This document shows positions 39,995 to 42,669 of a stretch of DNA of 64,000 bases, one piece after another. The stretch comes from Candidatus Bathyarchaeota archaeon (GTDB lineage: Archaea > Thermoproteota > Bathyarchaeia > Bathyarchaeales > Bathycorpusculaceae). The translations under genes were made by a program, and so were the position numbers. A model generated the notes under the pieces. That model saw only the letters and a program-made list of their open reading frames with translations. It did no database searches and was not told the DNA's origin. The DNA is taken from contig CAWDYC010000011.1 in assembly GCA_963806535.1 (NCBI GenBank), forward strand, positions 166,309-230,308. The letters are read 5' to 3'. Each line of letters opens with the position of its first letter. The first letter of the stretch is position 1.

Positions 39995-40984
39995 TTGGTT
40001 AATTTGCCCGAAGACAGGTTATGGAATAAAGTGAATATTCTGTTAAATTCGTATGGTCAAGAATCTTTACTTTTTTCAAAAAACTATGTGCTCAAAGAAA
40101 ACATCGACTATAAACCTCTAAGTGAAGCATTAGAGTATTTCTTTGAATCATGGTTTGATGTTCTTCATCCAACATTAATTTCTCTTTCATGTGAAGCCGT
40201 TGGTGGCAATAAAAGTGAGACTGTAAAGATAGGCGCCGCTATTGTCTTAATGGCTGGAGCTGCTGACATACATGACGATATCATCGATAGATCAGCAAAC
40301 AAAGGATCAAACCTGACCGTTTTTGGAAAATTTGGTCAAGACATTGCCATACTTGCGGGAGACGCTTTGCTTTTGAAAGGTATTTATCTGCTTCGAGAAG
40401 GATGCAAAACATTGAGCAAAAATGAGGAAGATGAAATTTTTGATTTCATAAAGGGAACTTTTTTTGAAATGAGCAGTGGCGTCGCAAGGGAGGCATTTCT
40501 CAGAGGAAAAACTTCAATTTCATTAGATGACTTTCTCTCGATTGTTAGGCAAAAGGTAGCAACTGTAGAGGCTACAATGAAAATCGGTGCAATTATTGGG
40601 AAAGGATCTGTAGAGAAAGCCTCTATTCTAAGCCATTTCGGCAGGACATATGGGGTACTATTGTCTTTAAGAGATGAATTTGTGGATGTTTTTGAGGTTG
40701 ATGAACTCAGAAATAGACTTGCAAATGAATGTTTGCCTCTTCCAATTTTGCTTGCTTTTCAAGACAAAAATAGAAAGCAGCAACTTGAAAATATTCTCCA
40801 GAATGAAATTACAACTGAAAACATTGATAAGATATTGGATCTTTCGATGGATAGTCCAGAAAGTAAAGAATTGATTGATCGCATGAAAAACATAATTAAA
40901 GACGAAATTAATAATTTATCTTCTATAGAAAACAATAAAGACATATTGACCCTACTATTACAATCAACAGTTGAAGATCTATGA
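39995..40984 (+). CDS. Polyprenyl-synthase-fold prenyltransferase, degenerate (ComQ-like)
   Basis: FARM HDDIID and AILAGD intact; GKxxRP, RRG and KT motifs absent; second motif DEFVD. Confidence 0.8.
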   Translation: MVNLPEDRLWNKVNILLNSYGQESLLFSKNYVLKENIDYKPLSEALEYFFESWFDVLHPTLISLSCEAVGGNKSETVKIGAAIVLMAGAADIHDDIIDRSANKGSNLTVFGKFGQDIAILAGDALLLKGIYLLREGCKTLSKNEEDEIFDFIKGTFFEMSSGVAREAFLRGKTSISLDDFLSIVRQKVATVEATMKIGAIIGKGSVEKASILSHFGRTYGVLLSLRDEFVDVFEVDELRNRLANECLPLPILLAFQDKNRKQQLENILQNEITTENIDKILDLSMDSPESKELIDRMKNIIKDEINNLSSIENNKDILTLLLQSTVEDL

Positions 40985-41020
40985 CAAAAAAGGAAAATTT
41001 GGGGACTAACTTATCCCCAA
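40985..41020 (-). terminator. Hairpin plus T-tract after the peptide gene
   Basis: ttgggga-N8-tccccaa (40999-41020) followed on the minus strand by ttttccttttttg. Confidence 0.6.
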
Positions 41021-41049
41021 GCTCTTGCTCTAATAGGTTTAACGCGCAT
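41011..41049 (-). CDS. Putative ComX-like Trp-containing peptide MRVKPIRARAWG
   Basis: ATG 41049 to TAA 41011; SD-like aaaggagaagtg upstream; BRE/TATA at 41102-41116; terminator downstream. Confidence 0.6.
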   Translation of the reverse strand: MRVKPIRARAWG

Positions 41050-41101
41050 TGATAGAAGCACTTCTCCTTTCGTTTATATCTGTATCTGTGTTGTACAGAA
41101 A

Positions 41102-41116
41102 TACTTAAAAGGTTTT
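41102..41116 (-). promoter_or_regulatory. BRE/TATA for the peptide gene
   Basis: aaaaccttttaagta on the minus strand, about 55 nt upstream of the ATG. Confidence 0.55.
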
Positions 41117-41319
41117 CGGAAGAGTCATGACTACTTTGAAACGATACCACCATTTTGACCATATCTTTAAGCTGTCAAAACCCCCAATCTTGTTTATTTA
41201 GAGAAGTTTTAGGGATGGCTGAAGGCAGTAAAAATACCTCTATTACCAAAATATGGATTATTAATACTGAATATTTAATTGTCTATATCCGCATTTATAT
41301 TTTCGAGCACGGAAATTCG

Positions 41320-42669
41320 ATGCTAAAAAAGCTACTTATCCCGTTTCAATTTGGGTTGCGATCTGCTCTATTGGATATTGTACTAGTTGGAAATTCTTTT
41401 ATATGGTATTATGTAGTTTTAATTCTTCTGCTTCAAGATATAGTTACAAATATCAATCCTAGCTTCAACCAAAGTGTATTGATTTGGGGTTTACATTTCG
41501 GTGGATTGATAGTGTCAGCGGTTGCTGGAACTTTTGTATCCAAAAAAATTCAACAAAGACAATTAATCATACTTTGGATGATTCTTGGCATTATTTCTTC
41601 ACTTGCAGTAGTAATTGTTAATTCATCAAGTCTAGAACAAATCAGTCTAATTAGTCTCTTTTTGGGTATTTCGCTGGGATTCGGGATGCCCACATGCATT
41701 GGTCGTTATGCTAATTCTGTTTCAGTGGAGAGTCGAGGCCGCGTAAGTGGAATTACGATATTTGCTAGCGGAATTGGAATTGTCGCTATTAGCATTTCAG
41801 GAATAGCTGGACTCCTTATTCTTGGAATATTTCTTGCAATTGTACGGCTGTCTGGCTTAATCATTTTCTTATCCGCTAGGACTCCCTCAACATCTTTGAC
41901 CGCGAAGAAAAGCACTCCAAGTTATAAGAAAATTGTCGGTCAGCGTTCTTTCATTTTATACTTCGTGCCTTGGCTCATGTTTTCTTTGTTAAACTATCTT
42001 ATTGCACCCCCAACTGGAATCAATACGTCCGGAGCAGAAAACTTATCATTAATACAAACTGGTTTTATCGGGATATTTGCCTTGCTCGGAGGTTTTTTCA
42101 TTGATTCTGTTGGAAGAAAACGAATCGCGGTTATAGGTTTTATTTTGTTAGGTCTTGGAACCGCTGTACTAGGTATTTTTTCGCCTAATCCGAGTTTCCC
42201 AATATTATTTTTGAATGCAATTCTCGATGGAACTGCGTGGGGTCTCTTATTTGTCTTATTCATTTTAACGCTATGGGGTGACTTAAGTTATAATGAATCA
42301 AGCGATAAGTATTATGCTATAGGCGTAACGCCCTTTTTTATCTCAAAATTTTTAGACCTCACAATCGGCAGAGCATTTATAGTACCCTACTTTAACAATC
42401 AAGCCGCATCTACATCCACATTATTTTCTTTTGGAGCTTTATTTTTATTCTTAGCGGTTTTACCACTAATCTATGCTCCTGAAACTCTTCCTGAAAAAGC
42501 AATCAAAGATAGAGACCTTAAGAGCTATATTGTGAAGGCTCAGAAAGCAGCAATGAAAGAAGAAAAGAAAAACTCAAAAGAGAAATCCCCGCAAAAAAAT
42601 GAAGATGAAAGCGAAGAAAAAAATGAAGCATATGATGAAGCGCGGAAGCTGGCGGAAAAATACTATTAA
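41320..42669 (+). CDS. Divergent MFS-fold membrane protein with charged C-terminal tail
   Basis: About 12 TM helices; ESRGRVSG, DSVGRKR and PETLP motifs. Confidence 0.8.
   Translation: MLKKLLIPFQFGLRSALLDIVLVGNSFIWYYVVLILLLQDIVTNINPSFNQSVLIWGLHFGGLIVSAVAGTFVSKKIQQRQLIILWMILGIISSLAVVIVNSSSLEQISLISLFLGISLGFGMPTCIGRYANSVSVESRGRVSGITIFASGIGIVAISISGIAGLLILGIFLAIVRLSGLIIFLSARTPSTSLTAKKSTPSYKKIVGQRSFILYFVPWLMFSLLNYLIAPPTGINTSGAENLSLIQTGFIGIFALLGGFFIDSVGRKRIAVIGFILLGLGTAVLGIFSPNPSFPILFLNAILDGTAWGLLFVLFILTLWGDLSYNESSDKYYAIGVTPFFISKFLDLTIGRAFIVPYFNNQAASTSTLFSFGALFLFLAVLPLIYAPETLPEKAIKDRDLKSYIVKAQKAAMKEEKKNSKEKSPQKNEDESEEKNEAYDEARKLAEKYY

Follow-up and report, generated by a model that had tools for sequence, protein, structure and literature searches.

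A micropeptide gene facing a divergent prenyltransferase gene

We analyzed a stretch of 64,000 nucleotides from a Candidatus Bathyarchaeota archaeon (assembly GCA_963806535.1, contig CAWDYC010000011.1, positions 166,309 to 230,308; the whole stretch is called the window below). At the locus of interest, a gene of 12 codons converges on the 3′ end of a gene for a divergent enzyme with the fold of trans-isoprenyl diphosphate synthases (IPPS), and a gene for a transporter of the major facilitator superfamily (MFS) follows the enzyme gene (Table 1). A preliminary description of this DNA had proposed an archaeal counterpart of the bacterial ComQ/ComX system, in which the enzyme would prenylate a tryptophan of the small peptide and the MFS protein would act as exporter or sensor. 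Our results show that the micropeptide gene is real, conserved, and coupled to the enzyme gene, and that the enzyme has lost the binding site for isopentenyl diphosphate (IPP). What the two products do together has to be weighed among several explanations.

The minus strand of the gap between the enzyme and MFS genes holds a complete small transcription unit, as had been described: a TATA box preceded by a transcription factor B recognition element (BRE), a Shine-Dalgarno (SD)-like sequence, the open reading frame (ORF), a hairpin, and a T-tract. In the reverse complement, the ORF reads ATG CGC GTT AAA, then CCT ATT AGA (Pro-Ile-Arg), then GCA AGA GCT, and ends with TGG GGA before TAA. The hairpin and T-tract abut the stop codon of the enzyme gene (40982-40984), and one such terminator-like site was found 3′ of the ORF with 0.3 expected in shuffled sequences. 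The perfect inverted repeat upstream of the ORF occurs once in the window, with 0.05 copies expected. In the closest relative, locus L003, the hairpin is retained, and the micropeptide gene differs from that of the window by three synonymous and two conservative changes. A longer form of 16 residues starting at GTG 41061 had also been considered; this codon reads GAC in L003, hence the 12-residue form starting at ATG is the conserved one. An Rfam scan of the whole window gave no match in the gap between the enzyme and MFS genes; its only matches were two tRNAs. A look-up of sequencing runs yielded one DNA run sharing a small part of the words of this sequence and no RNA run, which has no bearing on expression.

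Table 1. Features of the micropeptide locus (coordinates within the window)
Feature	Coordinates	Strand	Basis and remarks
Divergent trans-IPPS-fold enzyme (prenyltransferase-like), 329 residues from TTG 39995	39995..40984	plus	PF00348; AlphaFold2 model
Micropeptide ORF, MRVKPIRARAWG followed by TAA	41049-41011	minus	Sequence reading; homologs beside related enzyme genes
SD-like sequence AGGAG	41068-41064	minus	14 nucleotides 5′ of the micropeptide ATG
TATA box TTTTAAGT	41110-41103	minus	BRE-like AAAACC in front; whole element 41103-41116
Inverted repeat CTGTA-N9-TACAG	41080-41098		Flanked by the TATA box and the expected transcript start; candidate PadR-type operator
Terminator: 8-bp hairpin (41020-40999), then T-tract ATTTTCCTTTTTT	40985-41020	minus	Would end the micropeptide transcript
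MFS transporter, 449 residues from ATG 41320, charged C-terminal tail	41320..42669	plus	PF07690
Radical SAM/SPASM gene, TIGR04084 (AF0577 family)	42694..43825	plus	Split by an extra C; membership doubtful

The micropeptide is conserved as a protein

We assessed conservation in two sets: 80 Bathyarchaeia loci related to the enzyme (the genome set; 81 enzyme sequences were aligned) and 80 loci taken from roughly 520 in metagenomes, of which 75 could be evaluated and some of whose contigs duplicate genome loci. A script assigned a peptide gene in 67 of the 80 genome loci, giving 68 peptides together with that of the window, and variants recognized by eye in L030, L036, L042, L066, and L082 bring the total to 72 of 80; L061, which comes without flanking sequence, stands outside this evaluation. 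A peptide gene convergent with the 3′ end of the enzyme gene is likewise present in 70 of the 75 evaluable metagenome loci. The preliminary description had staked its proposal on the presence of such a mini-ORF beside enzyme homologs, and this expectation is borne out.

The peptides share a common build: an N terminus rich in Lys and Arg, then P-[IVLM]-R, then three to eight hydrophobic or aromatic residues and the stop. Their length ranges from 10 to 23 residues (median about 15; 68 peptides), and their genes start with ATG (54), ACG (6), GTG (5), or TTG (3), the window included. A TATA-like hexamer lies 25 to 85 nucleotides 5′ of the start in 59 of the 68 genes, an SD-like tetramer or pentamer is found 3 to 17 nucleotides from the chosen start in most of them, and in 29 the stop is followed by a tract rich in T. 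We also searched zones near the enzyme stop codon with a strict motif, i.e., a small frame with at least two Lys or Arg residues, P-x-R, two to nine further residues, and a stop. Of 79 zones, 58 contained it on the peptide strand and none (0/79) on the opposite strand, against a background of 0.024 per zone, or about 2 in 79 zones by chance; in 200 shuffles, matches averaged 1.2 and never exceeded 5. All 42 aligned peptides have the Arg of the motif, and at least 90% have the Pro. Since this Arg is written by six codons (AGA 31, AGG 9, CGA 11, CGG 6, CGC 3, and CGT 5) and the Pro by all four of its codons, and since changes such as those separating the window from L003 are synonymous or conservative, selection acts on the protein. 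The Trp near the C terminus, which had been taken as the prenyl acceptor, is retained in the window's own clade; across the family it lies among the last five residues in 50 of the 68 peptides.

It could be argued that the ORF is untranslated and that conservation applies to a promoter, an operator, and a terminator, or to a small antisense RNA that opposes the enzyme gene at its 3′ end. The upstream block of TATA box and inverted repeat is indeed conserved at the DNA level, the transcript converges on the enzyme gene and overlaps its end by up to 32 nucleotides in some loci, and six loci have ACG in place of their relatives' ATG. Yet the frame, start, stop, and SD-like sequence are kept where the enzymes are only 35 to 71% identical, the changes in the DNA are synonymous, the codons of the single invariant Arg belong to two codon families, and a 1-nucleotide indel between L022 and L023 falls immediately ahead of the start without disturbing the frame. 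Together with the lack of motif matches on the other strand, this makes an untranslated element highly improbable.

The ACG codons occupy the position of the ATG of sister loci, directly after GGAGG, in L018, L021, L022, L023, L027, and L029, and also in L183; the L029 sequence comes from a different project than the other five. Because the downstream codons are fully conserved, these cases suggest initiation at ACG (or editing) rather than loss of the gene. In one locus, L010, the gap that follows the enzyme gene holds a tandem pair of peptide genes, MKRTKPIRPIRMYWA and MKREKPIRPIRKYWT.

The enzyme family keeps the first aspartate-rich motif and has lost the IPP site

The AlphaFold2 model of the enzyme (pLDDT 94.3) has an ordinary trans-IPPS fold, with a TM score of 0.81 to the geranylgeranyl diphosphate (GGPP) synthase of P. 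horikoshii (1wy0), and its top Foldseek matches are IPPS enzymes (TM 0.75-0.81). The all-alpha fold and a Pfam match above the cut-off (PF00348, polyprenyl_synt, 75.1 bits against 27) place it in the trans-IPPS superfamily. This match is nevertheless weak next to that of the paralog: of the two PF00348 genes in genome G000 (12 contigs, 92% complete), that of the window has 76 bits and one on contig C7 has 218 bits. The latter gene, adjoining a type-2 IPP isomerase gene (IDI-2), encodes a canonical GGPP synthase in which every motif is present. The NCBIfam equivalogs stay far under their cut-offs for the window enzyme, the best being IdsA with 105.7 bits against 468. A start at TTG 40004 is also possible for the enzyme, since the database copy P0001 has 326 residues.

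We read the motifs from alignments to 1wy0 and to the canonical paralog. In the window enzyme, GGKRxRP is replaced by FDVLHP, E..H by V..A, RRG by NKG, and FQ by LS; the first aspartate-rich motif (FARM) is kept as DDIID and the second (SARM), DDxxD, is altered to DEFVD. Both the retention of the FARM and the alteration of the SARM had been pointed out before. Compared with a canonical archaeal GGPP synthase, the enzyme thus shares the fold, the length, the FARM, and the Lys of the KT motif, and differs in the basic residues that bind IPP (GGKRxRP, E..H, RRG), in FQ, and in its PF00348 score (218 against 75 bits). Of the IPP motifs said to be replaced, GKxxRP, ExxH, and RRG are indeed gone, whereas in KT only the Thr is lost, the Lys (K187) being retained in 81 of 81 sequences.

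These changes hold across the 81 sequences. D91-I-H-D-D-I-I-D98, T108, K187, E237, and R241 are invariant in all 81, and W53, D55, H58-P59, K103, R226, D231, P248, and P250 are nearly so. In the IPP region of the family, GGKRxRP has become W53-x-D55-x-x-H58-P59, E..H has become V84..A87, and RRG has become K103-x-x. The SARM reads [D/E/N]-[E/D]-F-I-D (first position D 42, E 25, N 10; second position E 51, D 30), and the loop after it is rebuilt as E-L-x-N-R-x-x-N-E-C-L-P-L-P. The motif changes are therefore a conserved signature of the family and not decay, and the loss of the IPP site with retention of the FARM, first noted in a single enzyme, is a family trait. Among the features of chain elongation, the FARM is present, and the basic IPP-binding residues, FQ, and the second DDxxD are absent. 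We infer that the enzyme binds an allylic diphosphate and not IPP. Because acidic and aromatic residues replace the basic clamp, the site would suit a cationic acceptor.

Matches at the family level are found in 28 of 151 sampled Bathyarchaeia genomes, including 4 of 7 from the window's genus; the locus is an accessory cassette of some Bathyarchaeia lineages. This count leaves out matches of about 140 to 150 bits to the hidden Markov model in other Bathyarchaeia families. We considered these as distant members and rejected them: L105, L106, L107, and L110 carry GGK.LRP, RRG, and FQ..DD and are canonical enzymes of the GGPP synthase type, and L108 gave no tblastn match.

Six related loci without an adjacent peptide gene (L026, L028, L039, L043, L047, and L051) form a clade in which the second Asp-rich motif reads K-[YN]-[DE]. 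In L028, L039, L043, L047, and L051, the MFS gene is divergent and upstream of the enzyme gene, and a conserved, apparently noncoding stretch directly follows the enzyme gene; in L039 and L047 a gene for a trypsin-like serine protease (GDSGGP) lies between the MFS and enzyme genes. Tandem duplications of the enzyme-MFS pair occur in L021 (7224-8420) and L027 (6937-8763). The second enzyme copy of L021 has its own peptide-like frame, broken at a run of A, and the second gap of L027 has only about 60 nucleotides, with no peptide seen. Two adjacent enzyme matches also occur on contigs C13 of G071 and C31 of G120.

A characterized enzyme with an acceptor other than IPP that we compared is Ord1, an all-alpha-helical indole prenyltransferase (PDB 9V4G-J). 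It has the same fold and, according to the published description we drew on, acts on free indole or tryptophan and not on a peptide. The window enzyme matches it with 51 bits in sequence and at rank 20-21 in fold (TM about 0.7), whereas GGPP, hexaprenyl, and solanesyl diphosphate synthases are closer (1wy0: 70 bits, TM 0.81), and the key Gln of Ord1 is not conserved in the window family. The enzyme is thus no closer to Ord1 than to ordinary GGPP synthases in either sequence or fold, a result that does not favor the initial proposal.

The micropeptide follows the enzyme gene and not its neighbors

The MFS gene lies downstream of the enzyme gene on the same strand in 70 of the 80 loci, in line with the co-occurrence predicted for it. 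Its product matches MFS_1 (PF07690) with 44.1 bits against a cut-off of 33.4, and its nearest Atlas clusters are Bathyarchaeota MFS transporters. As its start, ATG 41320 is likelier than TTG 41155, because the alignments with relatives begin no earlier than query residue 27-97, in most cases 54-77. The stop of the peptide gene falls from -32 to +78 nucleotides of the enzyme stop, and it stays there even where 0.8 to 2 kb part the enzyme from the MFS gene (L009, L052, L060, and L077). The peptide sequences track the enzyme tree, related enzymes having related peptides; labeling each locus as having a Trp tail, no Trp, or no peptide requires at least 13 changes on this tree. In G084 (L097), from the window's genus, the genes for leucyl-tRNA synthetase (LeuRS), the MFS protein, and the radical S-adenosylmethionine (SAM) protein are kept, and enzyme and peptide are both absent. 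It is the enzyme with which the peptide belongs, neither the MFS gene nor the radical SAM gene, and peptide and enzyme diverge in parallel.

This pattern bears on a different explanation, in which the enzyme is a terpene synthase derived from isoprenyl diphosphate synthases, or a prenyltransferase of small molecules, whose product the MFS protein exports. The peptide would then be an independent small protein of a PadR regulon, such as a regulator or a membrane-active peptide. Terpene synthases of this descent are known from insects and have lost the IPP site while retaining the FARM, Ord1 is a precedent for prenylation of free indole by the same fold, and PadR regulators and MFS pumps are commonly paired; seven enzyme loci, moreover, have no adjacent peptide gene. 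An independent peptide would not be expected to follow the enzyme where the MFS gene is separated, nor to be lost with it as in G084. The clade without the peptide also has a changed SARM, and the complex prediction described below weakly favors binding over the controls. We consider this explanation unlikely.

The third neighbor, a radical SAM/SPASM gene, directly follows the MFS gene in 50 of the 80 loci. Relatives have it as a single frame, and an additional C within the C-run 42948-42951 interrupts the copy of the window. Its N-terminal part has the CxxxCxxC motif (CNLQCKYC), the C-terminal part alone reaches 233 bits against the TIGR04084 cut-off of 225, and the SPASM domain TIGR04085 is matched with 43 bits. 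The peptide could be the substrate of this protein, as a peptide that is ribosomally made and post-translationally modified (RiPP), with a cross-link or another radical modification, the prenyltransferase-like enzyme being at most a later tailoring step. SPASM radical SAM enzymes act mostly on peptides, enzymes of this class that cross-link Trp and Arg have been described (WprB), and the gene is present in 25 of the 28 enzyme-bearing genomes compared with 54 of 123 others, a difference not controlled for kinship. It is nonetheless found above the cut-off in 79 of the 151 genomes, as well as in the S. acidocaldarius control, mostly without the enzyme, MFS, and peptide genes nearby; in six of the seven enzyme-less genomes whose flanks were fetched (L098-L104), no MFS or enzyme match flanks it. 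In G111, of the window's genus, only LeuRS and the radical SAM gene are present, side by side. Conversely, about 16 well-flanked loci keep the enzyme, peptide, and MFS genes without an adjacent radical SAM gene, and G084 keeps the radical SAM and MFS genes while the peptide is gone. A primary role of this protein in the maturation of the peptide is hence quite improbable to us, and a role as an accessory modifier is possible. A literature search on TIGR04084/AF0577 gave no relevant match, and its function appears undescribed there. Being far more widespread than the enzyme family, the radical SAM gene seems to be an older resident and not a core part of the cassette, which looks like an insertion into an older LeuRS-radical SAM synteny.

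In the window's family (L003-L023, L097, L098), the radical SAM gene and LeuRS commonly share one stretch. Two tRNA genes of the window, tRNA-His(GTG) (37528-37601) and tRNA-Leu(CAG) (37797-37884), lie upstream of the cassette by about 2 kb, and tRNA-Pro(GGG) (59052-59121) is found farther on. The stretch 37912-39855 includes a GDSL lipase gene in two frames and an acyltransferase_3 gene in three (38761-39168, 39126-39509, and 39412-39855). As these nearby genes are split as well, the split of the radical SAM gene is likely an assembly indel; for all the frameshifted genes (37912-39855 and the C-run), assembly indels are more likely than pseudogenes.

An operator-like element is shared with PadR-family genes

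Two PadR-family genes lie directly upstream of the enzyme gene in 42 of the 80 loci. In the window's lineage their place is taken by LeuRS or other genes, and an orthologous divergent pair is found on contig C1 of G000 (3597-3926 minus, 4171-4599 plus). The inverted repeat of the window corresponds to a motif, TGTwswACA, a few bases, and wwACA, located between the TATA box and the SD-like sequence, for which we scanned 626 kb of loci. Of its 62 matches, 53 are in peptide-promoter zones (46 of the 80 loci), 6 in PadR promoters, and 3 elsewhere. The PadR pair on C1 has motif-like sites at 3884-3900 and 4139-4155, with three mismatches each, one 16 nucleotides before the start of the plus-strand gene and the other just inside the start of the minus-strand gene; only 0.03 such sites were expected, and two were reached in none of 200 shuffles. 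Another copy, identical in 16 of 17 positions, is at C11:8761-8777, about 285 nucleotides upstream of a further PadR gene. The bare repeat TGTA-N9-TACA is not enriched genome-wide (41 sites against 33 for the reversed control), and only the fuller motif is specific. Since the inverted repeat is shared with PadR-family genes, control of the peptide promoter by a PadR protein is a reasonable inference from these sequences, and the sites could form a small PadR regulon. Similar 17-mers also occur at C7:176102 and C8:98746.

A predicted complex of enzyme and peptide

We predicted the complex from the enzyme alignment with the peptide alignment as partner, in three runs and with three controls. The score was 0.52 (runs 0.52, 0.46, and 0.57) compared with 0.03 for the best of the three controls; the pLDDT of the partner was at least 62, and the runs agreed in at least 71% of contacts. 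In calibration, which used proteins of at least 30 residues throughout, the solved complexes passed the mark in 58 of 80 cases and the mismatched pairs in 2 of 110, and scores of 0.60 or less comprised 7 of the 80 solved complexes and both passing mismatches. The value of 0.52 thus falls in a band where a pass is more often wrong than right unless binding was likely beforehand. The co-folding that had been suggested as a check gives modest support for binding of the peptide to the enzyme, whatever the site or mode.

Binding of any kind fits this score, including that of a subunit or regulator. The Arg and the basic N terminus of the micropeptide would then occupy the altered acceptor site, where they would either provide in trans the positive charges now missing from the enzyme and so restore the binding of a diphosphate co-substrate, or plug the site, and the hydrophobic tail would serve only as an anchor; a bolder variant makes the micropeptide an obligatory subunit that completes the active site. 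The residues gone from the enzyme are precisely the basic ones for the IPP diphosphate, which agrees with such a role, as do the invariance of the Arg (42/42), the Pro kept in at least 90%, the variable and sometimes non-nucleophilic tail, the tight coupling of the genes, and the co-divergence of their products. A separate promoter on the opposite strand does not, however, provide the stoichiometric co-expression of a subunit, nor does this role account for the neighboring transporter or explain why the tails of most clades are rich in Trp. We know of no micropeptide subunit of a trans-prenyltransferase, and on balance such a role seems to us rather unlikely.

Discussion

The explanation that we prefer, with a probability of about 0.4, is that an enzyme of the IPPS fold, put to a new use, prenylates a leaderless micropeptide, which the MFS protein exports and which is under the control of PadR. 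The enzyme would bind and ionize an allylic prenyl diphosphate through the first Asp-rich motif, K187, D231, and R241. IPP binding would have been lost by replacement of the basic clamp for the IPP diphosphate by W53, D55, and H58, and the freed acceptor site would take the cationic peptide with its basic N terminus, its P-[IV]-R, and its short hydrophobic or aromatic tail. The enzyme would then transfer the prenyl group to the tail of the peptide, the acceptor in the window's clade being most likely the Trp near the C terminus. The lipidated peptide, having no leader, could be moved across or into the membrane by the adjacent MFS protein, and its expression from its own promoter would probably be controlled by PadR. 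Prenyl transfer to the peptide, the acceptor residue, MFS export, and PadR control are all deduced here from gene content and sequence. The more specific proposal, in which a peptide of 12 to 20 residues is prenylated directly, without a recognition domain or a protease step, and in which MFS export and PadR control also hold, is put forward tentatively and with less than even confidence.

How does this compare with known systems? Peptide prenylation by IPPS-fold enzymes is so far described only for a few bacterial systems (ComQ, PalQ, ChrPC, and StheQ), and each characterized system in that account targets Trp on a precursor bearing a leader or an NHLP domain (PMC13290415). We compared ComQ, PalQ, and StheQ with the window enzyme from published descriptions, and not by alignment or a joint tree. 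As described, these bacterial enzymes, which resemble trans-isoprenyl diphosphate synthases, prenylate a Trp near the C terminus of a peptide encoded by an adjacent gene. The likenesses with ComQ/ComX and StheQ/StheX are several: an IPPS fold with an intact FARM, an altered second motif, an enzyme that is not an IPP elongase, and a cognate peptide from an adjacent small gene. The peptides of the window's clade also resemble ComX and StheX in having a Trp two to three residues from the C terminus. The PalX core, reported as DNVRRFFW, resembles KPMRIFFW (L040) and PIRGAWW (L016) in its basic residues, its aromatics, and its C-terminal Trp, and PalQ is likewise related to isoprenoid synthases. 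PalQ is reported to form a remote cluster of its own in the superfamily network, and its pairing with PalX was first suggested by a predicted complex.

The differences concern both the peptide and the enzyme. The ComQ and StheQ systems are bacterial and the window system is archaeal; their precursor genes are co-directional in an operon, whereas the window peptide gene runs toward the enzyme gene from a promoter of its own. In StheQ, the FARM is intact and the SARM is repurposed as N215-D216-x-x-D219, which reportedly binds no metal; in the window family, the second motif, [D/E/N]-[E/D]-F-I-D, is mostly acidic, with N first in 10 of 81. No histidine kinase lies beside the enzyme gene, the conserved regulators nearby being of the PadR type, so that PadR and MFS proteins are found at the loci of the window family where ComQ systems have a ComP-type kinase. 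PalX differs from the window system in its NHLP leader, reported to enhance prenylation, and in the histidine kinase of its cluster.

Several observations weigh against prenylation of the peptide. No peptide gene lies beside the enzyme gene in seven loci, namely the six of the clade with the changed second motif and L069, nor beside the distant member in G004. Trp is missing from 17 of the 68 peptides, and aromatic residues of any kind are missing from six tails (TLPL, TTPII, LSI, LCL, ILG, and IGL), so Trp cannot be the acceptor throughout the family. The window family conserves Arg and Pro more strongly than Trp, unlike the ComQ and StheQ systems, and an invariant Arg with a nearly invariant Pro suits a role in recognition or structure as well as it suits a substrate. 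The known precursors have leaders of 50 to 70 residues or NHLP domains (StheX is given as 69 residues long), and the window peptide has none. A Gln just upstream of the SARM is described as common to ComQ, PalQ, and Ord1 (PMC13290415), and it is absent from the window family: the corresponding position, 224, is T in 36, I in 16, A in 6, N in 6, and S in 4 of the 81 sequences, and Q is never the majority. The StheQ variant Q212A, however, is reported to retain 94% of the activity. Finally, the complex score lies in the uncertain band noted above.

Hence the ComQ/ComX reading given in the preliminary description holds in part: its adjacent peptide, its FARM, and its loss of the IPP site stand, and the Gln, the leader, and the receptor kinase of the bacterial systems have no counterpart here. 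The Trp-ending peptide of that description is upheld for the window's clade and is not universal in the family as a whole. The window system plausibly works like those of the ComQ type, but we do not file it as a member of the ComQ family. A literature search at the level of abstracts found no description of an archaeal ComQ-like system or of a RiPP from Bathyarchaeia with these genes.

Whatever the mechanism, a gene of 12 codons can be traced across more than 140 loci and was missed by standard annotation. The locus offers a two-component system for assays, the enzyme and a synthetic peptide. If our explanation is correct, this would be the first prenylated peptide of Archaea and the smallest known gene-encoded precursor of a lipopeptide, and enzyme and peptide may together form the first system of Archaea for adding a lipid tail to a short ribosomal peptide. 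It would extend peptide prenylation by the IPPS fold to another domain of life, with a minimal pair of enzyme and substrate for peptide lipidation. In communities of sediment and peat, the prenylated peptide might function either as a signal or as an agent active on membranes. For Bathyarchaeia, which are abundant and barely cultured, this would point to signaling or antagonism by means of peptides.

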